Source: a virus (lineage: Duplodnaviria > Heunggongvirae > Uroviricota > Caudoviricetes). Taken from it: a stretch of DNA of 18,936 nucleotides. Below the pieces are notes generated by a model, which did not search any database, was not told the DNA's origin, and saw nothing but the letters and a program-made list of their open reading frames with translations. The stretch spans positions 1-18,936 of the IMG/VR virus record IMGVR_UViG_2529293138_000006. The stretch is one strand, 5' to 3'. Positions 1 to 14,382 of the stretch are shown here, in pieces. A program made the position numbers and the translations under genes. How positions within the stretch are numbered: the stretch's first letter is position 1; every line of letters begins with the position of its first letter.

Positions 1-1143
1 CTATGCTGTTTTGATATCTACGATAATCCAGTCTTTACCACGATCATCATTGTATCGGTCGGTCATTTTTCTGGATTTATGGCCTAACAACTTTTGCGTA
101 TCCAGACCCTGTTCCCGATATAACCGTTCTGACAGAGATCGCTGTTCATGAAATGTGGGCGCAGTTCCTTGCTCCCATTTTATGCCACATTTTTCCCGGG
201 CCTTTTTAAAAGCCGTTGTCAGAGTATTTGCAGAAACCTGGTCTCCTCTGTTTGCTTGAGAGGTAGTGTGACGGTAATGGACCAGATATTTACTAACAAC
301 AGCATCCCTGCACTGAGATATAACTTCACGAAGGGTAATATTCAGAGCATCGCATTTCAGGTTAAGCGGAATAGCAAGTTTTGAACCGGTTTTTTCCTGA
401 GTAATGTGCAACATGTCGTCCCATATATCAGAGAATTTCAAATTGCAGATATCGCCTAAACGTTGTCCAGTAACAAGAGCAAGTAGCATGCCGCATTTTA
501 AATAGGGCTGCCGTCTGCTTACGCTTTCAAATATTGCCTGCCATTCGAGCAGTGACAATCTTTGGCGGTTTACTCGATTTCGCGGTTGTTTTGTTGCCTG
601 CGCTGGGTTAAATCCTGGCGGAACATGTCCTGCGTGTTGTGCTTCTTTGAAGACGTCGATCAACACCATTCTCACGACTTGCGCCATCCTGTTATGACCT
701 TCAGCCTTTACAGCATCAATTATTTCGGCAATATCAAGTGCGGTAATATCCTTGAGGTGTTGCATTCCACAATGCTCACGGAAAAGACGAATGGGTTTGC
801 CTTTTTGCCGATAGGAGTTGGGTCTTAGTTCATTATGTTGCAGCCTGTCCTCCTGGATAGAAATATATTTATCAAGCCATTCTGTCACCGTAATGTCTGA
901 GCGCCTGCCTTTCATTCTTTCCAGACGCTCATTGACGCTTAATATTTGTCTGGTACGTTGTTCAGCAATAATGGTATTTGCTTCAGTAGCAACTTGTTTT
1001 GCTTCATTCTCATCAGTTCCTAAGCTATGAAAACGACCGGATAGTGGATGTTTGTATTGCCAATATACCTTTCCGGTTCGCTTATCTAATTTGCAATATA
1101 AATTGGGTATAGAGATTTTGTGAGATCGGGGTCTAGCAGCCAT
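1..1143 (-). CDS. int: Phage integrase, tyrosine recombinase of the lambda Int family (380 aa)
   Basis: Full-length ORF with the stop codon at window position 1-3. C-terminal motifs typical of lambda-family integrases are visible in the translation (LALVTGQRLGDICNLKFSDI, TFHEQRSLSERLY, LLGHKS). Overlaps the excisionase by 11 nt. Not identical to lambda Int. Confidence 0.9.
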   Translation of the reverse strand: MAARPRSHKISIPNLYCKLDKRTGKVYWQYKHPLSGRFHSLGTDENEAKQVATEANTIIAEQRTRQILSVNERLERMKGRRSDITVTEWLDKYISIQEDRLQHNELRPNSYRQKGKPIRLFREHCGMQHLKDITALDIAEIIDAVKAEGHNRMAQVVRMVLIDVFKEAQHAGHVPPGFNPAQATKQPRNRVNRQRLSLLEWQAIFESVSRRQPYLKCGMLLALVTGQRLGDICNLKFSDIWDDMLHITQEKTGSKLAIPLNLKCDALNITLREVISQCRDAVVSKYLVHYRHTTSQANRGDQVSANTLTTAFKKAREKCGIKWEQGTAPTFHEQRSLSERLYREQGLDTQKLLGHKSRKMTDRYNDDRGKDWIIVDIKTA

Positions 1144-1369
1144 CAGCGATTATCCGTTGGAGTTTTGGGTTTGCGTTTATTGGGAGTTGCGGTTCTGCAA
1201 GCGTTCCTACAAAACGGGAATTTCGGTCAATCATCCAGTAGCGACCAACTTTTATAGCGGGTGGGGCCATCATTTTCCCTTGCGCGTATTTTTTCAGAAC
1301 TCGCTCACTTGGTGCTAAGTCCCCAAATTCTTCTTTAGCCCAGTCCTGTAAAGTGATTAGTCGAGACAT
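1133..1369 (-). CDS. xis: Excisionase-like small DNA-binding protein (78 aa)
   Basis: Small ORF immediately upstream of and overlapping int, the usual xis position. Strong SD (GGAGGA) about 4 nt before the ATG. Identity to a specific excisionase family is inferred from position and size only. Confidence 0.7.
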   Translation of the reverse strand: MSRLITLQDWAKEEFGDLAPSERVLKKYAQGKMMAPPAIKVGRYWMIDRNSRFVGTLAEPQLPINANPKLQRIIADGC

Positions 1370-1508
1370 TTGTCCTCCTCTTAGCTGCTGAGGGAGTTTG
1401 TGACCGATATATCTGACATGATATTAAGCTCATGGCAGGTACATCTCTTGACTGGTCATAGAGATAAATTTAATGCTGAGAAATGCAGTATTGAATTTAT
1501 CAATTTTT

Positions 1509-1748
1509 CTATTTCCTGCGTATGGCACGTAACTTCTTAATGTGTTCTGCCGTTTCGATCTCTTCTGCTATCCGATCTGCATCAGCTTTATTCACAGGTT
1601 CAAAGTCATGATTAAAGCGGAACATGCTGGCGATACATGTTCTGCCTTTTCGGATGTAGTGAACTTTGTTGTGGGTAGAACGCAGGATTTTGCAGGGAGT
1701 GCCGTGGTGGTCGACGTACCAGGTGTTAGGAAAAATGATTCTGAACAT
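1509..1748 (-). CDS. Hypothetical protein (79 aa) in the int-proximal accessory region
   Basis: ORF with a GAGGTG SD 5 nt upstream of the ATG; same orientation as neighbouring early-left genes. Not recognised. Confidence 0.5.
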   Translation of the reverse strand: MFRIIFPNTWYVDHHGTPCKILRSTHNKVHYIRKGRTCIASMFRFNHDFEPVNKADADRIAEEIETAEHIKKLRAIRRK

Positions 1749-1795
1749 TTTTACACCTCAGTTGGACGATGTTGAAATTTGCTGCTTTGAGGCCA

Positions 1796-2014
1796 TCACA
1801 ATCCCCATTGTTTGTTCTTAAGTTCGATCTCCTCCTGGCAACTTGCACAAGTCCGACAACCCTGAACGACCAGGCGTCTTCGCTCATCTATCGGATCGCC
1901 ACACTCACAACAATGAGTGGCAGATACAGTCTGGTAGTTCAGACGACGCATTTTTATTGCTGTATAGCGCTGTAATTCTTCGATTTCTGATGCTGAATCA
2001 ATGATGTCTGCCAT
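1796..2014 (-). CDS. DksA/TraR-family C4 zinc-finger protein, lambda Orf73-like (72 aa)
   Basis: Four-cysteine motif CxxC-N17-CxxC (CECGDPIDERRRLVVQGCRTCASC) in a ~70 aa protein, characteristic of TraR/DksA-type RNA polymerase-binding proteins carried by lambdoid phages. Confidence 0.7.
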   Translation of the reverse strand: MADIIDSASEIEELQRYTAIKMRRLNYQTVSATHCCECGDPIDERRRLVVQGCRTCASCQEEIELKNKQWGL

Positions 2015-2111
2015 CTTCCATTAATCCCTGAATTGTTGGTTAATACGCTTGAGGGTGAATGCGAATAATAAAAAGGAGCCTGTAGCTCCCTGATGATTTT
2101 GCTTTTCATGT

Positions 2112-2327
2112 TCACCGTTCCTTAAAGACGCCGTTTAACATGCCGATTGCCAGACTTAAGTGAGTCGGTGTGAATCCCATCAGCGTTACCGTTTCGCGGT
2201 GCTTCTTCAGTACGCTACGGCAAATGTCATCGACGTTTTTATCCGGAAACTGCTGTCTGGCTTTTTTGATTTCAGAATTAGCCTGACGGGCAATACTGCG
2301 AAGGGCGTTTTCTTGCTGAGGTGTCAT
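2112..2327 (-). CDS. Lambda orf61-like hypothetical protein
   Basis: Translation from the internal Met (MTPQQENALRSIARQANSEIKKAR...) matches my recollection of lambda orf61. The six-frame ORF extends to 2393, but the upstream 22 codons look non-genuine. Start choice is uncertain. Confidence 0.6.
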   Translation of the reverse strand: MTPQQENALRSIARQANSEIKKARQQFPDKNVDDICRSVLKKHRETVTLMGFTPTHLSLAIGMLNGVFKER

Positions 2328-2403
2328 TGAACAAGTCCCATGTCGGCAAGCATAAGCACACAGAATATGAAGCCCGCTGCCAGAAAAATGCATTCAGTGG
2401 TTG

Positions 2404-2595
2404 TCATACCTGGTCTCTCTCATCTGCTTCTGCTTTCGCCACCATCATTTCCAGCTTTTGTGAAAGGGATGTGGCTAACGTATGAAATTCTTCGTCTGTT
2501 TCTGCTGGTATTGGCACAAACCTGACTCCAATTTGAGCAAGGCTATGTGCCATCTCAATGCTCATTCTTAACTCAACAGGAGATGCTTTGTGCAT
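2404..2595 (-). CDS. Lambda orf63-like hypothetical protein (63 aa)
   Basis: Translation [23 protein letters not shown]... closely matches remembered lambda orf63; position between orf61 and orf60a as in lambda. Confidence 0.65.
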   Translation of the reverse strand: MHKASPVELRMSIEMAHSLAQIGVRFVPIPAETDEEFHTLATSLSQKLEMMVAKAEADERDQV

Positions 2596-2756
2596 ACAGC
2601 CCCTCGTTTATTATTTATCTCCTCAGCCAGCCGCTGGGCTTTCAGTGGATTTTGGATAACAGAAAGGCCGGGAAATACCCAGCCTCGCTTTGTAACGGAG
2701 TAGACGAAAGTGATCGCACCTACCCGGATATTATCGTGAGGATGCTTCATCGCCAT
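2568..2756 (-). CDS. Lambda orf60a-like hypothetical protein (62 aa)
   Basis: Translation [26 protein letters not shown]... matches remembered lambda orf60a; lies immediately downstream of exo with a short overlap. Confidence 0.6.
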
Positions 2757-3427
2757 TGCTCCCCAAATACAAAACCAATTTCAGCCAGTGCCTCGTCCAT
2801 TTTTTCGATGAACTCCGGCACCATCTCGTCAAAACTCGCCATGTAATTTTCATCCCGCTCAACCACGACATAATGCAGGCCTTCACGCTTCATTCGTGGG
2901 TCATAGTTGGCAAAGTACCAGGCATCTTTTCGCGTCACCCACATGCTGTACTGCACCTGGGCCATGTAAGCCGACTTTATGGCCTCGAAACCACCGAGCC
3001 GGAATTTCATGAAATCCCGGGAGGTAAACGGGCATTTCAGTTCAAGGCCGTTGCCGTCACTGCATAAACCATCGGGAGAGCAGGCGGTGCGCATACTTTC
3101 GTCGCGATAGATGATCGGGGATTCAGTAACATTCACGCCGGAAGTGAACTCAAAGAGGGCTCTGGCGTCGTTCTCGTACTGTTTTCCCCAGGCCAGCGCC
3201 TTAGCGTTAACTTCCGGAGCCACACCGGTGCAAACCTCGGCAAGCAGGGTGTGGAAGTAGGACATTTTCATGTCAGGCCATTTCTTTCCGGAGCGGGGTT
3301 TTGCTATCACATTGTGAACTTCTGAAGCGGTGATGACGCCGAGCCGTAATTTGTGCCACGCATCATCCCCCTGTTCGACAGCTCTCACGTCGATCCCGGT
3401 ACGCTGCAGGATAATGTCCGGTGTCAT
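2747..3427 (-). CDS. exo: Lambda exonuclease (Red-alpha, 5'-3' dsDNA exonuclease), 226 aa
   Basis: Translation is near-identical to lambda Exo along its whole length ([72 protein letters not shown]...GFVFGEQWR). Confidence 0.95.
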
Positions 3428-4209
3428 GCAGCCACCTTCTGTTCAGAGGCTTTCTGTTTCAGGAATCCAAGAGCTTTCACTGCTTCGGCCTGTGTCAGTT
3501 CTGACGATGCGCGAATGTCGCGGCGAAATATCTGGGAACAGAGCGGCAATAAGTCGTCATCCCATGTTTTGTCCAGGGCAATCAGCAGAGTGTTAATCTC
3601 CTGCATGGTTTCATCGTTAACCGGAGTGATGTCGCGTTCCGGCTGACGTTCTGCAGTGTATGCGGTATTTTCGACAATGCGCTCGGCTTCATCCTTGTCA
3701 TAGATACCCGCAAATCCGAAGGCCAGACGGGCACACTGAATCATGGCTTTATGACGTAACATCCGTTTGGGATGCGACTGCCACGGTCCGGTGATTTCTC
3801 TGCCTTCGCGGGTTTTGAATGGTTCGCGGCGACATTCATCCATCCACTCGGTAACGCAGATAGGATGATTGCGGTCCTTGCGGTAAATCCGGCATGTGCA
3901 GGATTCATTGTCCTGCTCAAAGTCCATACCATCAAACTGCTGGTTTTCATTGATGATGCGGGACCAGCCATCAACGCCCACCACCGGAACGATGCCGTTC
4001 TGCTTATCAGGGAAGGCGTAAATTTCTTTCGTCCACGGATTAAGGCCGTACTGGTTGGCGACGATCAACAATGCGATGAACTGCGCATCGCTGGCATCAC
4101 CTTTAAATGCCGTCTGGCGAAGAGTGGTGATCAGTTCCTGTGGGTCGACAGAATCCATGCCGACACGTTCAGCCAGCTTCCCAGCCAGCGTTGCGAGTGC
4201 AGTACTCAT
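3424..4209 (-). CDS. bet: Lambda Bet (Red-beta) single-strand annealing protein, 261 aa
   Basis: Translation matches lambda Bet along its length; stop overlaps the exo start, as in lambda. Confidence 0.95.
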
Positions 4210-4214
4210 TCGTT

Positions 4215-4511
4215 TTATACCTCTGAATCAATATCAACCTGATGGTGAGCAATGGTTTCAACCATGTACCGGATGTGTTCCGCCATGCGCTCCTGAAACT
4301 CAACATCGTCATCAAATGCACGGGTAATGGCTTTTTTGCTGGCCCCGTGGCGTTGCAAATGATCGATGCATAGCGATTCAAACAGGTGCTGGGGCAGGCC
4401 TTTTTCCATGTCGTCTGCCAGTTCTGCCTCTTTCTCTTCATGGGCGATCTGCTGGTAGTGACGCGCCCAGCTCTGAGCCTCAAGACGATCCTGAATGTAA
4501 TAAGCGTTCAT
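4215..4511 (-). CDS. gam: Gam (short form, GamS) RecBCD inhibitor, 98 aa
   Basis: Translation [60 protein letters not shown]... matches lambda Gam. AGGAG SD upstream of the ATG. The upstream frame contains TAA stops, so only the short form is encoded. Confidence 0.93.
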
Positions 4512-9489: not shown

Positions 9490-9788
9490 CGGGCAAAGAG
9501 GCAATTATTCATTACCTGGGGACGCATAAGAGCTTCTGTGCACAGGACGTTGCCGCGGTAACAGGCGCAACCGTAACCAGCATAAATCAGGCTGCGGCTA
9601 AAATGGCGCGGGCAGGAATCCTGGTCGTTGATGGTAAGGTCTGGCGAACGGTGTATTACCGGTTCGCTACCAGAGAAGAACGGGAAGGAAAGGTGAGCAC
9701 GAATCTGATTTTTAAGGAGTGTCGCCAGAGTGCCGCGATGAAACGCGTATTGAGGGTATATAAAAGAACATCAATGGGTACACAATGA
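9486..9788 (+). CDS. ren: Ren (Rex exclusion protein), 100 aa
   Basis: Translation MTGKEAIIHYLGTHKSFCAQDVAAVTGATVTSINQAAAKMARAGILVVDGKVWRTVYYRFATREEREGK... matches lambda Ren; overlaps the P stop. Confidence 0.9.
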   Translation: MTGKEAIIHYLGTHKSFCAQDVAAVTGATVTSINQAAAKMARAGILVVDGKVWRTVYYRFATREEREGKVSTNLIFKECRQSAAMKRVLRVYKRTSMGTQ

Positions 9789-9855
9789 TGAAACAGGTGA
9801 GTTGATTTCAAACTGTAGTACAATTCTCTCCAGTTTGAACAGGAAAGAATATGCT

Positions 9856-10188
9856 ATGAACCCTTATATTTATCTTGGTGGTGCAATACTTGCAGAGGTC
9901 ATTGGTACAACCTTAATGAAGTTTTCAGAAGGTTTTACACGGTTATGGCCATCTGTTGGTACAATTATTTGTTATTGTGCATCATTCTGGTTATTAGCTC
10001 AGACGCTGGCTTATATTCCTACAGGGATTGCTTATGCTATCTGGTCAGGAGTCGGTATTGTCCTGATTAGCTTACTGTCATGGGGATTTTTCGGCCAACG
10101 GCTGGACCTGCCAGCCATTATAGGCATGATGTTGATTTGTGCCGGTGTGTTGGTTATTAATTTATTGTCACGAAGCACACCACATTAA
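9856..10188 (+). CDS. emrE: EmrE small multidrug resistance (SMR) efflux transporter, 110 aa
   Basis: Translation from MNPYIYLGGAILAEVIGTTLMKFSEGFTRLWPSVGTIICYCASFWLLAQTLAYIPTGIAYAIWSGVGIVLISLLSWGFFGQRLDL... matches E. coli EmrE. Four TM helices are evident. Same location (after ren) as in the DLP12 prophage. Confidence 0.93.
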   Translation: MNPYIYLGGAILAEVIGTTLMKFSEGFTRLWPSVGTIICYCASFWLLAQTLAYIPTGIAYAIWSGVGIVLISLLSWGFFGQRLDLPAIIGMMLICAGVLVINLLSRSTPH

Positions 10189-10217
10189 AATAATTTGTTT
10201 CTAAACGACTAAAATAT

Positions 10218-10250
10218 GGAGGCTCTTATATTTATATGAGCCTCGTTTTA
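10218..10250 (+). terminator. Rho-independent terminator downstream of emrE
   Basis: Perfect 7 bp stem GAGGCTC...GAGCCTC with a 12 nt AT loop, followed by GTTTTATGCTTTTTG. Confidence 0.6.
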
Positions 10251-10442
10251 TGCTTTTTGTTAATGTCTTTATTTTTTATGTATTCTTTTGTGCTTTCAAG
10301 ATTATGGCGTAAGAAAATTGCAATACGATTATTGTTGTATATTCAAGATAATGTGACCTTAATTGTCTTTTTAAATAAAAATTAAACAAAAATTATATCC
10401 CACCACTAAGGTTTATAAAAGCATACGTTAGCAGGTGTCACC

Positions 10443-11969
10443 ATGAAAAAAGCCATAGCATATATGCGATTTTCATCACCAGGTCAGATGTCTGGCGACT
10501 CATTAAACCGACAGAGAAGACTTATTGCTGAATGGTTAAAGGTAAATAGTGATTATTATCTTGATACCATAACATATGAAGATTTAGGATTAAGTGCATT
10601 CAAAGGAAAGCATGCACAATCAGGAGCTTTTTCGGAATTTTTAGATGCTATAGAGCATGGTTATATATTGCCAGGAACTACATTGTTAGTTGAAAGTCTG
10701 GACAGACTTTCAAGAGAAAAAGTCGGTGAAGCGATTGAGCGTCTGAAATTGATTTTGAATCACGGTATTGATGTTATAACTCTTTGCGATAATACAGTCT
10801 ATAATATTGACTCTTTGAATGATCCATATTCATTAATAAAAGCCATACTTATAGCACAAAGGGCAAATGAAGAAAGCGAGATAAAGTCAAGTCGGGTTAA
10901 ATTATCATGGAAGAAAAAACGGCAGGATGCACTGGAGTCAGGCACGATTATGACGGCGTCTTGTCCGAGATGGCTCTCCTTAGATGACAAAAGAACGGCT
11001 TTTGTTCCAGACCCCGACAGGGTGAAAACTATTGAGCTAATTTTTAAACTCAGGATGGAAAGGCGCTCATTGAATGCAATAGCCAAGTATTTAAATGATC
11101 ATGCTGTAAAGAATTTCTCAGGAAAAGAAAGTGCATGGGGACCTTCTGTAATTGAAAAATTATTAGCGAATAAAGCTCTGATAGGTATATGCGTACCTTC
11201 ATATCGTGCAAGAGGTAAAGGAATAAGTGAAATCGCTGGCTATTATCCCAGAGTCATATCAGATGATTTGTTTTACGCTGTGCAGGAAATTCGGTTGGCA
11301 CCTTTTGGTATTAGCAATAGTAGCAAAAATCCTATGTTGATAAATCTACTTCGAACAGTTATGAAGTGCGAGGCTTGTGGTAATACCATGATTGTTCATG
11401 CGGTATCTGGAAGTTTGCATGGCTATTATGTTTGTCCGATGAGAAGACTGCATCGATGTGACAGGCCATCAATAAAGAGAGATTTGGTTGATTATAATAT
11501 CATTAATGAGTTGCTTTTTAATTGTAGTAAAATCCAACCAGTTGAAAACAAGAAAGATGCTAATGAAACTTTAGAGTTGAAAATTATTGAGCTCCAGATG
11601 AAAATTAATAATTTAATTGCTGCATTATCTGTTGCGCCTGAAGTTACCGCTATAGCAGAAAAAATCAGAGTATTAGATAAGGAATTACGAAGGGCTTCTG
11701 TATCATTAAAAACTTTGAAGAGTAAAGCGGTGAGCTCACTTGGTGATTTTCATGCTATTGACTTAACCAGTAAAAATGGGCGAGAGCTATGTCGTACACT
11801 TGCCTATAAAACATTCGAAAAAATCATAATCAATACAGATAATAAAACCTGTGATATCTATTTTATGAATGGCATTGTTTTTAAACACTACCCTTTAATG
11901 AAAACAATATCCGCCCAGCAGGCGATAAGTACTCTCAAATATATGGTTGATGGTGAGGTTTATTTTTGA
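10443..11969 (+). CDS. ybcK: Large serine recombinase (DLP12 YbcK-like), 508 aa
   Basis: N-terminal resolvase-type catalytic region with the serine motif (AIAYMRFSSPGQ), a long recombinase domain and a Cys-rich segment (CEACGN...CPMRRLHRC) consistent with a zinc ribbon. AT-rich codon usage. Confidence 0.85.
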   Translation: MKKAIAYMRFSSPGQMSGDSLNRQRRLIAEWLKVNSDYYLDTITYEDLGLSAFKGKHAQSGAFSEFLDAIEHGYILPGTTLLVESLDRLSREKVGEAIERLKLILNHGIDVITLCDNTVYNIDSLNDPYSLIKAILIAQRANEESEIKSSRVKLSWKKKRQDALESGTIMTASCPRWLSLDDKRTAFVPDPDRVKTIELIFKLRMERRSLNAIAKYLNDHAVKNFSGKESAWGPSVIEKLLANKALIGICVPSYRARGKGISEIAGYYPRVISDDLFYAVQEIRLAPFGISNSSKNPMLINLLRTVMKCEACGNTMIVHAVSGSLHGYYVCPMRRLHRCDRPSIKRDLVDYNIINELLFNCSKIQPVENKKDANETLELKIIELQMKINNLIAALSVAPEVTAIAEKIRVLDKELRRASVSLKTLKSKAVSSLGDFHAIDLTSKNGRELCRTLAYKTFEKIIINTDNKTCDIYFMNGIVFKHYPLMKTISAQQAISTLKYMVDGEVYF

Positions 11970-12081
11970 GTAATAATCACTTTTTTCAACCGTGCTATAG
12001 TAAGAAAGTTAGGTAAGTACAATAAAATTATCTATCCTGAACGAAGCGTCCTGAGCTATGGTTTTACTATAGGGACTGCCA

Positions 12082-12411
12082 ATGGATGCTGGCGTTCTCG
12101 TTCTAGCAGTTCAACAATCCCCAATCACAAAACAATTCACTGATAACGAACTTTGCACACTCGCCTGGTTATGGCGAGCAGGGAATGTGATGTTAATTGC
12201 CTACCAGAACGTTACTCATCTTCTTCAGGATGCGGAGCATGGTGAAGCTGGTCGCTTCACTTCCATCGAGCAAGAATATCCCCAGATACTCACCAGAGCG
12301 CGAGCAATCCTCGCCAGAGAAACGGCACATGTAAAATTCCAGCCGTGGCAGGATGATAAGTGGAGTCGAGTATTGCCACATTTGCGTCAGAATGTTATTA
12401 AACAACGTTAG
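12082..12411 (+). CDS. Hypothetical protein (109 aa)
   Basis: ORF only; weak SD. Not recognised. Could be a gene remnant. Confidence 0.35.
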   Translation: MDAGVLVLAVQQSPITKQFTDNELCTLAWLWRAGNVMLIAYQNVTHLLQDAEHGEAGRFTSIEQEYPQILTRARAILARETAHVKFQPWQDDKWSRVLPHLRQNVIKQR

Positions 12412-12470
12412 CTACTGTGTCTCTCCAATTTAGCTAACATATGGATTCATAAGAAAAAGGAGCTTTTGCC

Positions 12471-12722
12471 ATGATGTCCTTCACCAAATGTAAATTAATG
12501 CACAGCCATAAAACTAGCGTAAATGCAGCGCTCTTGGACGATACGAAATTAGTTGTAGAGAGGGATCTCCATTTTCTTCGTGAGTTATACATATCAAGCC
12601 CAGAAGAATTTGTCGGACATTGGGTTTATGCAAATGAGCCAATATTTCATGAACATCCACTGTCTGTTGGCCTTTCTGGTATTGTCTATCACAAGGTTAT
12701 TGATGAAATTGAAAAATCATAA
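12471..12722 (+). CDS. Hypothetical protein (83 aa)
   Basis: ORF with a good SD (AAGGAG, ~8 nt spacer). Not recognised. Confidence 0.45.
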   Translation: MMSFTKCKLMHSHKTSVNAALLDDTKLVVERDLHFLRELYISSPEEFVGHWVYANEPIFHEHPLSVGLSGIVYHKVIDEIEKS

Positions 12723-12892
12723 TCAATAAGCAATAATACCGTCACCGTTGGCCTGAACACCCTGCGGTGACTTCTGCGCATATGATTGGGAAATTATATG
12801 CGACCACAAGTTAAACTCCTCGCCTTGCCACAGATGCAGAAATGCACCTGCGTTTTTTTGCATCCAACGTTTGACCTCTGCGGAGGTGAAGC

Positions 12893-13348
12893 GTGAACCT
12901 CCCACAAGACGGCATCAAATTACATCGCGGCAACTTCACCGCTATCGGCCAGCAGATCCAGCCTTATCTGGAGGACGGAAAATGCTTTCGCATGGTGCTT
13001 AAACCGTGGCGTGAGAAACGCAGTCTTTCCCAGAATGCACTCAGCCACATGTGGTACAGCGAAATCAGTGAATACCTCATCAGCAAGGGTAAAACGTTCG
13101 CCACTCCAGCTTGGGTAAAAGATGCTCTCAAACACACATATCTCGGTTATGAAACCAAAGACCTGGTTGATGTCGTAACCGGTGATATCACCACTATCCA
13201 GTCGTTACGCCATACCTCCGATCTTGATACCGGAGAGATGTATGTCTTCCTGTGTAAGGTTGAAGCCTGGGCGATGAATATTGGCTGCCACCTGACTATT
13301 CCGCAGAGCTGCGAGTTCCAGCTGCTGCGCGACAAGCAGGAGGCGTAA
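12893..13348 (+). CDS. ybcN: NinB-family recombination protein (DLP12 YbcN-like), 151 aa, GTG start
   Basis: Translation matches remembered DLP12 YbcN ([19 protein letters not shown]...). GGAGG SD 6 nt upstream of the GTG. Confidence 0.85.
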
Positions 13349-13518
13349 TGGCTACACCGCTTATTCGTGTCATGAACGGACACATCTACAAAGTACCAAA
13401 TCGTCGTAAGCGTAAACCTGAGCTGAAGCCATCCGAAATACCAACACTGCTCGGATATACCGCCAGCCTGGTTGATAAAAAATGGTTGCGACTGGCAGCA
13501 AGGAGGAATCATGGCTGA
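13348..13518 (+). CDS. ninE: NinE-like small basic protein (56 aa)
   Basis: Manually translated: [59 protein letters not shown] overlaps the ybcN stop (TAATG). Below the ORF-track size cutoff. Confidence 0.6.
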   Translation: MATPLIRVMNGHIYKVPNRRKRKPELKPSEIPTLLGYTASLVDKKWLRLAARRNHG

Positions 13519-13801
13519 TTTGAGAAAAGCAGCGCGTAGTCGGGAATGCCAGGTAAGAATCCCTGGCGTATGTAATGGCAACCCTGAAACGTCTGTACTG
13601 GCACATATCCGGCTGACTGGATTGTGCGGCACCGGTACCAAACCGCCAGACTTGATTGCCACCATTGCATGTTCTGCCTGCCACGACGAAATCGACCGCC
13701 GCACACATTTTGTCGATGCTGCATATGCAAAAGAATGCGCGCTGGAAGGTATGGCGAGAACACAGGTTATCTGGCTGAAAGAGGGGGTTATTAAGGCGTG
13801 A
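13511..13801 (+). CDS. ybcO: YbcO-like protein (DUF1364 family, putative nuclease), 96 aa
   Basis: Start chosen at [10 protein letters not shown] with an AGGAGG SD; Cys-rich translation ([11 protein letters not shown]...CSACHDEID) matches remembered DLP12 YbcO. Confidence 0.75.
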
Positions 13802-14160
13802 ATACCTACAGCATCACATTACCTTGGCCTCCGAGCAATAATCGCTACTACCGGCATAATCGCGGGCGCACGCACATCAGCGCAGAAGGGCAGGCATACC
13901 GTGATAACGTCGCCCGAATCATTAAAGGCTCAATGCTGGATATCGGCCTGGCTATTCCTGTGAAAATCCGCATAGAGTGCCACATGCCGGATCGCCGTCG
14001 CCGTGACCTGGATAATCTGCAAAAAGCCGCTTTTGACGCACTCACTAAAGCAGGTTTCTGGCTGGATGATGAGCTGGTCGTTGATTACCGCGTTGTGAAG
14101 ATGCCTGTTACCAAAGGTGGGAAGCTGGAACTGACCATCACTGAACTGGGAGATGAATGA
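13798..14160 (+). CDS. rusA: RusA Holliday junction resolvase, 120 aa, GTG start
   Basis: Translation [26 protein letters not shown]...[27 protein letters not shown]... matches E. coli RusA. Confidence 0.9.
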
Positions 14161-14297
14161 TGTTTGAGTCTTGTATGGCAGAACGTCTTCGCCGCCGCTG
14201 GGTGCGCCTGCGCTTATATCGTTTCCCCGGTTCTGTTTTGACCGATTACCGAATACTGAAGAATTACGCCAAAACCCTGACAGGAGCAGGAGTATGA
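14157..14297 (+). CDS. ylcG: YlcG-like small protein (46 aa)
   Basis: Manually translated: [46 protein letters not shown]. Overlaps the rusA stop. Matches remembered DLP12 YlcG. Confidence 0.6.
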
Positions 14298-14382
14298 AGT
14301 CAGAGATAACAATCAACTAATACTGTTTTGTTGATTTTTGCTTGTAATTGGCGTTCTGGTCTGATTTTTGTGGAGTAAGTTG

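Follow-up and report, generated by a model that had tools for sequence, protein, structure and literature searches.

Gene content of the locus and comparison with K-12

The sequence analysed here, referred to as the window, is the whole stretch of 18,936 nt of the IMG/VR record IMGVR_UViG_2529293138_000006. All of it belongs to a DLP12-like lambdoid prophage, in which the plus strand carries, in this order, the replication genes O and P, ren, emrE, ylcJ, ybcK, the interval under study, ybcN, ninE, ybcO, rusA, ylcG and quuD. Gene annotation was taken from Escherichia coli SE11, whose locus is colinear with the window and 98.5% identical to it over positions 9701–14300. The interval and its surroundings contain the following features:

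10443–11969, plus strand: ybcK, an ORF encoding a large serine recombinase of 508 aa, annotated as ybcK in SE11, H10 and K-12
11979–12094, plus strand: junction DNA, restricted to lineages that carry ybcK, between the end of K-12 homology (11978) and the start of homology to full-length antirepressor genes (12095)
12082–12411, plus strand: ORF109, 109 aa, ATG start, most likely an antirepressor 3′ remnant (Pfam P22_AR_C, phrog_7640)
12242–13085, no strand given: putative imported block of 844 bp, delimited with a mismatch map, with 100% identity to the E. coli 2014C-3307 prophage (L002)
12471–12722, plus strand: ORF83, 83 aa, ATG start, a putative small accessory gene (PHROG 9613, RefSeq WP_000986835.1)
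12723–12892, plus strand: conserved segment preceding ybcN, the right boundary of the slot, common to every cassette type
12798–12896, plus strand: ylcH-like ORF of 32 aa, a hypothetical protein in SE11 and ylcH in K-12
12893–13348, plus strand: ybcN, NinB-type, the right flank, annotated as 'DNA base-flipping protein'

The two ORFs that an earlier note on this DNA had placed between the serine recombinase and ybcN, of 109 and 83 aa, were found at these positions, both on the plus strand. The note had also placed ybcL and ybcM at this point of DLP12, in agreement with the gene order of K-12 MG1655 (NC_000913.3), namely ybcK, ybcL, ybcM, ylcH and ybcN. The two prophages have the same flanks, with emrE, ylcJ and ybcK on the left and the ylcH-like ORF, ybcN, ninE, ybcO, rusA, ylcG and quuD on the right, at DNA identities of 97.5% (through ybcK and up to 11978) and 94.6%, respectively. 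However, they differ in what lies between. In blastn comparisons, homology to K-12 stops at 11978 and resumes at 12721, and the 742 bp of the window enclosed by these points (11979–12720) stand in place of 1,858 bp with ybcL and ybcM in K-12. No blastn alignment links this stretch to the K-12 locus (L004), and neither ORF109 nor ORF83 matches the PEBP or AraC families of Pfam.

The left flank, ybcK, belongs to an emrE-ylcJ-ybcK module. At the other end, the ylcH-like ORF, which the earlier note had omitted, is part of the shared backbone, outside the variable part; it overlaps the start of ybcN by 4 nt and has a terminator-like hairpin inside it. No Rfam family was detected in the window or in the interval, and the interval holds no meaningful repeats. 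At the scale of the whole window, the best coverage in one place by any complete E. coli genome was 85%, and the best partial genome matches have genes for a DGQHR-domain protein and a porin among their neighbours. The mosaic of the window is uncommon, and its left part may hold other cargo.

ORF109 corresponds to the C-terminal half of an antirepressor

ORF109 has P22_AR_C (PF10548) as its sole Pfam match, with 50.7 bits against a gathering cut-off of 22.4 (1.9e-13). The domain is complete, since residues 15–85 correspond to positions 3–73 of the 73-position profile. The protein also matches phrog_7640 (2e-70), while no Bro-N domain was found in it with Pfam and no PADLOC defence model matched it at E≤0.1. 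Both domains are present in WP_021568450.1, a protein of 204 aa from E. coli 2014C-3307, with Bro-N at residues 17–100 and P22_AR_C at residues 110–180. Residues 5–109 of ORF109 are 90% identical to residues 100–204 of this protein. At the nucleotide level, the window and the full-length antirepressor gene are homologous from 12095 onwards, that is, from 13 nt past the ATG of ORF109 and from about codon 100 of 204. The ATG itself, a weak Shine-Dalgarno (SD) motif (AGGGA, 12071–12075) and the first four codons belong to unrelated DNA 3′ of ybcK. The N-terminal half of the antirepressor is absent from the entire window. ORF109, thus, shares a complete P22_AR_C domain with antirepressors of the Bro-N/P22_AR_C type (WP_021568450.1; annotated as 'Rha protein' in phage PhiR5_1), but it differs from them in the loss of the whole Bro-N domain, in its four foreign N-terminal residues, and in the relaxed constraint and nonsense alleles described below.

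The earlier note had regarded both ORFs as unrecognised cargo. This holds for ORF83, to which homology assigns no function, but not for ORF109, which is most plausibly the 3′ end left over from a Bro-N/P22_AR_C antirepressor gene and is already listed in RefSeq as a 'P22AR C-terminal domain-containing protein'. The note had also reasoned that matches to fragments of known genes would speak against its proposal; ORF109 is such a fragment, whereas ORF83 is not, given that its homologues align with it from end to end.

Spread and probable decay of the truncated antirepressor gene

We examined a set of 80 IMG/VR loci encoding antirepressor relatives. The truncated form occurs in 54 of them, and about 26 carry full-length genes of 201–234 aa. 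In every truncated locus of this set in which ybcK was captured, the ORF starts 114 nt past the last ybcK sense codon, and none of the ~26 full-length loci has ybcK. The junction between ybcK and the remnant is present in 520 of 5,426 complete E. coli genomes (~9%). Judging from these sequences, the distribution points to a single ancestral junction that would have spread with the emrE-ybcK module. A site-specific insertion of this module into an antirepressor gene by YbcK was considered and rejected, the 5′ half of the target being missing from the window; because of that absence, a replacement or an illegitimate joining at the antirepressor/ybcK junction seems more likely than a simple insertion.

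ORF109 is most likely a decaying remnant of an antirepressor gene, apparently beheaded at its junction with the ybcK module, and most likely without a function of its own. The alternative is a functional stand-alone P22_AR_C protein, kept by selection after truncation, such as a dominant-negative factor or modulator that binds full-length antirepressors or the repressors of co-resident lambdoid prophages; we consider this proposal, including its specific form, clearly unlikely. One argument for decay is a pairwise dN/dS over 91 shared codons of 0.31 for the truncated form, which is still below neutrality but ~4-fold above the 0.08 of the full-length genes, in a comparison of 12 versus 4 unique alleles that is blurred by recombination with full-length alleles. 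It is joined by the extra premature stops seen in 10 of the 54 truncated loci, which represent two independent nonsense alleles, of 79 and 99 aa (none is evident in full-length copies, in which internal stops were unchecked). A selected gene would fit the frame that stays open at 105–109 aa, from the same start, in the other 44 truncated loci, as well as the moderate SD duplex (−5.6 kcal/mol) and the treatment of the sequence as a protein family by both PGAP and PHROGs (phrog_7640). However, the N-terminus of such a protein would be built from unrelated junction DNA, and Lambda_4C10-type phages retain only the first ~90 nt of the remnant, followed by different cargo. Presence in ~9% of complete E. 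coli genomes could likewise be taken as a sign of function, but hitch-hiking with the common emrE-ybcK module explains this wide spread. Some uncertainty as to a residual function persists, because most copies have kept an open frame and dN/dS stays below 1.

A slot with at least nine alternative contents

The slot belongs to the early-right operon of a DLP12-like lambdoid prophage, where it immediately precedes ninB/ybcN. It extends from the stop codon of the antirepressor gene to a stretch of ~180 nt that is conserved ahead of ybcN. The variable cargo slot with different content that the earlier note had suspected is borne out by the related prophages and phages, whose shared flanks enclose at least nine alternatives:

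ORF83
a 118-aa protein
a 168–169-aa protein
a 260-aa protein
a 309-aa BstA homologue (PADLOC PDLC02356, E=3.6e-121)
a pair of 58 and 210 aa
a 240-aa protein, minus strand
an alpha/beta hydrolase, minus strand, in Lambda_4C10-type phages
ybcL-ybcM, in K-12

Synteny with DLP12 and its relatives, therefore, supports a variable slot, but places ORF109 outside its cargo, as an antirepressor remnant.

The BstA homologue occupies the slot in six IMG/VR prophages whose left flank consists of ybcK and the antirepressor remnant (in UViG_2534681673_000008, L029, at positions 3523–4452). BstA is a characterised abortive-infection protein of prophages and, in BTP1, bstA is found downstream of cI and adjoining it (Owen et al. 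2021, PMC8585504). The prophages of the L029 type carry the homologue at the same site as ORF83, between the antirepressor remnant and the segment preceding ybcN, whereas the bstA site of BTP1, downstream of cI, is a different one. BstA and ORF83 share no similarity, and ORF83 is a quarter of the size of BstA.

Three further arrangements were recorded around the slot. Escherichia virus Lambda_4C10 (L005, LR595861.1), of the genus Bievrevirus, carries at 886–4393 emrE, ybcK, ~90 nt of the remnant and the minus-strand alpha/beta hydrolase, of the BD-FAE family. Since emrE and ybcK are present in sequenced Bievrevirus phages, the 'cryptic DLP12' module also travels in records deposited as phage genomes. 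In E. coli 2014C-3307 (L002, 1196–3091), the place of the emrE-ylcJ-ybcK module of the window, here delimited by a truncated ren and the full-length antirepressor gene, is taken by a gene for a 631-aa protein with a NACHT domain; the region left of the antirepressor is, therefore, a second variable slot, in which defence cargo is possible. Finally, in the IMG/VR record UViG_2925914267_000006 (L065, 3909–5065), an IS3-family element with transposase ORFs of 100 and 272 aa lies between ORF83 and ybcN.

The right boundary of the slot is the stretch of ~180 nt preceding ybcN, which was found in every cassette type. Its part at 12820–12892 retains 86–91% conservation in loci as distant as L009 and L010, and in L002 (3176–3287) a diverged second copy of the stretch, with 74% identity, precedes the full-length antirepressor gene. 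The segment contains a hairpin followed by a T-run at 12833–12864, which resembles a terminator on the plus strand; the only plus-strand terminator-like site retrieved in a consensus scan (12832–12855) is situated here, in the shared backbone, 3′ of ORF83. The stretch may act as a terminator of the tR2 type, mark a boundary for the exchange of modules, or both.

ORF83 belongs to a family of small proteins with a predicted all-beta fold

ORF83 is preceded by the SD motif AAGGAG (12457–12462), located 8 nt 5′ of its ATG and with an anti-SD duplex energy of −7.9 kcal/mol, which agrees with the good SD that the earlier note had ascribed to it. Its product lacks transmembrane segments, and its pI is 5.9. 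It matches phrog_9613 from end to end (residues 1–82 on positions 1–82 of the 82-position profile, E=1.2e-41), a family without an assigned function, structure or Pfam model. This profile was likewise matched by all six aligned members of the ORF83 family, that is, ORF83 and five diverged homologues, none of which has a match in Pfam. Searches of the PDB with sequence profiles and of the PADLOC defence models (E≤0.1) gave no match for ORF83, and a literature search by accession retrieved nothing.

The gene is rare. It was detected in 10–11 of 5,426 complete E. coli genomes, with at least 99.7% identity, and in seven of the 80 IMG/VR antirepressor-relative loci, and no match was found in the GenBank phage collection by either tblastn or blastn. 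A word-indexed search of 5.8 billion protein clusters returned only ORF83 itself and one frameshifted variant. This variant, P0002 (85 aa; L007, 1133–1390; Logan SRR25240054), was discarded as a diverged homologue: it switches after residue 37 to the +1 ORF at 12580–12729, and either a real mutation or an assembly error is possible. An exhaustive HMMER search retrieved the five diverged homologues, with 33–58% identity, four of them full-length (74–80 aa) and one a fragment of 54 aa. Together with ORF83, they form an end-to-end alignment with nine invariant residues. Because the homologues are similar in length and align over their whole extent, we rejected the idea that ORF83 is a fragment of a larger gene. 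A profile search extended the family to 14 clusters, all 'hypothetical', including hits named for Kosakonia and Pectobacterium and a 94–97-aa E. coli subfamily with 29–33% identity to ORF83.

AlphaFold2, run on the six-sequence alignment, predicted a six-stranded all-beta protein with a pLDDT of 84 and a pTM of 0.74. A helical model from the single sequence (pLDDT 58) was dropped in favour of this one. Foldseek comparisons of the model with the PDB and BFVD yielded nothing significant (best E 0.45–1.6, TM≤0.46).

In four other lineages (L008, L009, L010 and L106), the homologues are encoded directly upstream of a NinB/YbcN/Orf-type gene, and their own upstream neighbours are not antirepressor genes. 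Two further subfamilies are found near the far end of the early-left region, adjoining exc/int, or at the edge of a prophage. In Pectobacterium-type prophages (L012–L017, 6001–6760), a distant family member is followed by a conserved 158-aa protein (phrog_1636) and usually then by exc/int; in an E. coli prophage (L105, 5001–5285), another distant member comes after a dATP/dGTP pyrophosphohydrolase gene. A consensus scan, in which the counts of promoter-like sites were near chance level, found no sigma-70-like site directly upstream of ORF83 (12412–12470), and no strong terminator-like signal beside the gene. Given its operon position, ORF83 is probably co-transcribed with the neighbouring plus-strand genes.

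Status and possible roles of ORF83

On these sequence grounds, we regard ORF83 as a real, though rare, small gene, as the earlier note had thought probable, because it combines a strong SD, a match to phrog_9613, homologues of conserved length, a conserved position and a confidently predicted fold. The opposite view, that of a non-coding ORF present by chance in AT-rich filler DNA, is effectively refuted. It could draw on the near-invariance of the sequence in E. coli, which leaves no within-species signal of selection, on the lack of a Pfam family or a GenBank phage match, and on the frameshifted variant in one SRA assembly, but a chance ORF would not be expected to have full-length homologues that retain nine residues at 33–58% identity, with more found by profile search, nor to gain from their alignment a rise in AlphaFold2 pLDDT from 58 to 84, nor to have so strong an SD. 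We also considered that ORF83 works solely with the antirepressor, for example as its inhibitor, chaperone or co-factor, and has been orphaned here by the truncation of its partner gene. The two are indeed linked in E. coli, with ORF83 following the antirepressor gene or its remnant at a distance of 59 nt in ten out of ten complete genomes and in seven out of seven IMG/VR loci, six of which have the full-length gene. However, the same antirepressor alleles precede at least six other unrelated cassettes, the homologues in L008, L009, L010 and L106 have kept only the position next to ninB/orf, without an antirepressor neighbour, and the remaining family members adjoin exc/int near the far early-left end or lie at a prophage edge, and we hold such a partnership to be very unlikely.

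What the family does can be proposed in general terms. ORF83 is probably a dispensable accessory gene of lambdoid prophages, carried in accessory slots of their early regions. Its product would be a small soluble all-beta protein that binds a host or phage macromolecule, which is a guess at the level of a functional class. A role in phage–phage or phage–host conflict is possible, and our confidence in any specific role is low. The most specific version of this idea is that the PHROG 9613 family (~74–97 aa, all-beta, with no neighbour in the PDB or BFVD) represents a new early-expressed small effector of lambdoid phages in such conflicts, which would be a counter-defence factor, an exclusion factor or a modulator of the NinB/Orf recombination function encoded next to it. 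We put it forward tentatively and judge it rather unlikely as it stands. If it were true, the fact that four or five diverged lineages carry the gene directly in front of ninB/orf would have a functional reason as well as one of slot geometry.

Probable origin of the arrangement by recombination

The mismatch map, made base by base, relates the window to two prophage types. Compared with a ybcK-type prophage (L019), the window has only two mismatches over 11900–12253. Compared with the 2014C-3307 type (L002), there are 15 mismatches in 12101–12241 and none in 12242–13085, after which mismatches resume. The prophage of 2014C-3307, which provides the donor-type match over 12242–13085, has a full-length antirepressor gene. 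The block comprises the 3′ end of the antirepressor remnant, ORF83, the segment preceding ybcN and the 5′ part of ybcN. Its complete identity to a prophage with a full-length antirepressor suggests that ORF83 arrived by homologous recombination. The combination of ybcK, the remnant and ORF83 was otherwise found only in SE11 and in the IMG/VR locus L018. Both have the same cassette, with the left crossover further to the right, after 12339, and this difference indicates that the cassette was captured at least twice independently.

The following course of events would account for these data. An ancestral antirepressor gene encoding 201–205 aa, with Bro-N and P22_AR_C, would have lost its promoter-proximal half, up to about codon 100, on being joined to the emrE-ylcJ-ybcK module. 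The junction DNA would by chance have provided an ATG and a weak SD, and the resulting ORF of 105–109 aa would have stayed open. From then on, ORF109 would have been under relaxed selection, with its DNA serving as a passive left homology arm for swapping the downstream content. A block of no more than 844 bp (12242–13085), derived from a prophage with a full-length antirepressor, would have brought ORF83 into the ybcK-type prophage, through a left crossover within the C-terminal coding sequence of the antirepressor (12242–12253) and a right crossover within ybcN (~13018–13085). In the established model of lambdoid mosaicism, modules are exchanged through recombination between homologous patches that have diverged (Martinsohn et al. 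2008, PMC2327257). The exchange proposed here is the same in kind: the cassette lies between the antirepressor 3′ end on the left and the segment preceding ybcN, together with ybcN, on the right, and the crossovers map inside these conserved patches. Taken as a whole, we consider it likely that the interval is a cargo slot upstream of ninB/ybcN, with a beheaded antirepressor gene and an ORF83 imported by recombination.

Implications

The slot and its contents are a case of ordinary phage mosaicism, and nothing in them contradicts current understanding. ORF109 is the remnant of a gene with a known domain, and ORF83 is an accessory gene of orphan-like character, housed in a variable phage slot of a familiar type. 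For genome annotation, the consequence is that ~9% of complete E. coli genomes carry an ORF that is named 'P22AR C-terminal domain-containing protein' but is best regarded as an antirepressor stump left by the emrE-ybcK module. For phage evolution, the locus offers a clean, base-resolved example of a lambdoid cargo swap, with crossovers in a dead gene fragment and in ybcN. Finally, the presence of a known defence protein, BstA, in the slot makes its uncharacterised occupants, namely ORF83 and the 118-, 168-, 260- and 58+210-aa cassettes, reasonable, though unproven, candidates for conflict-related functions.
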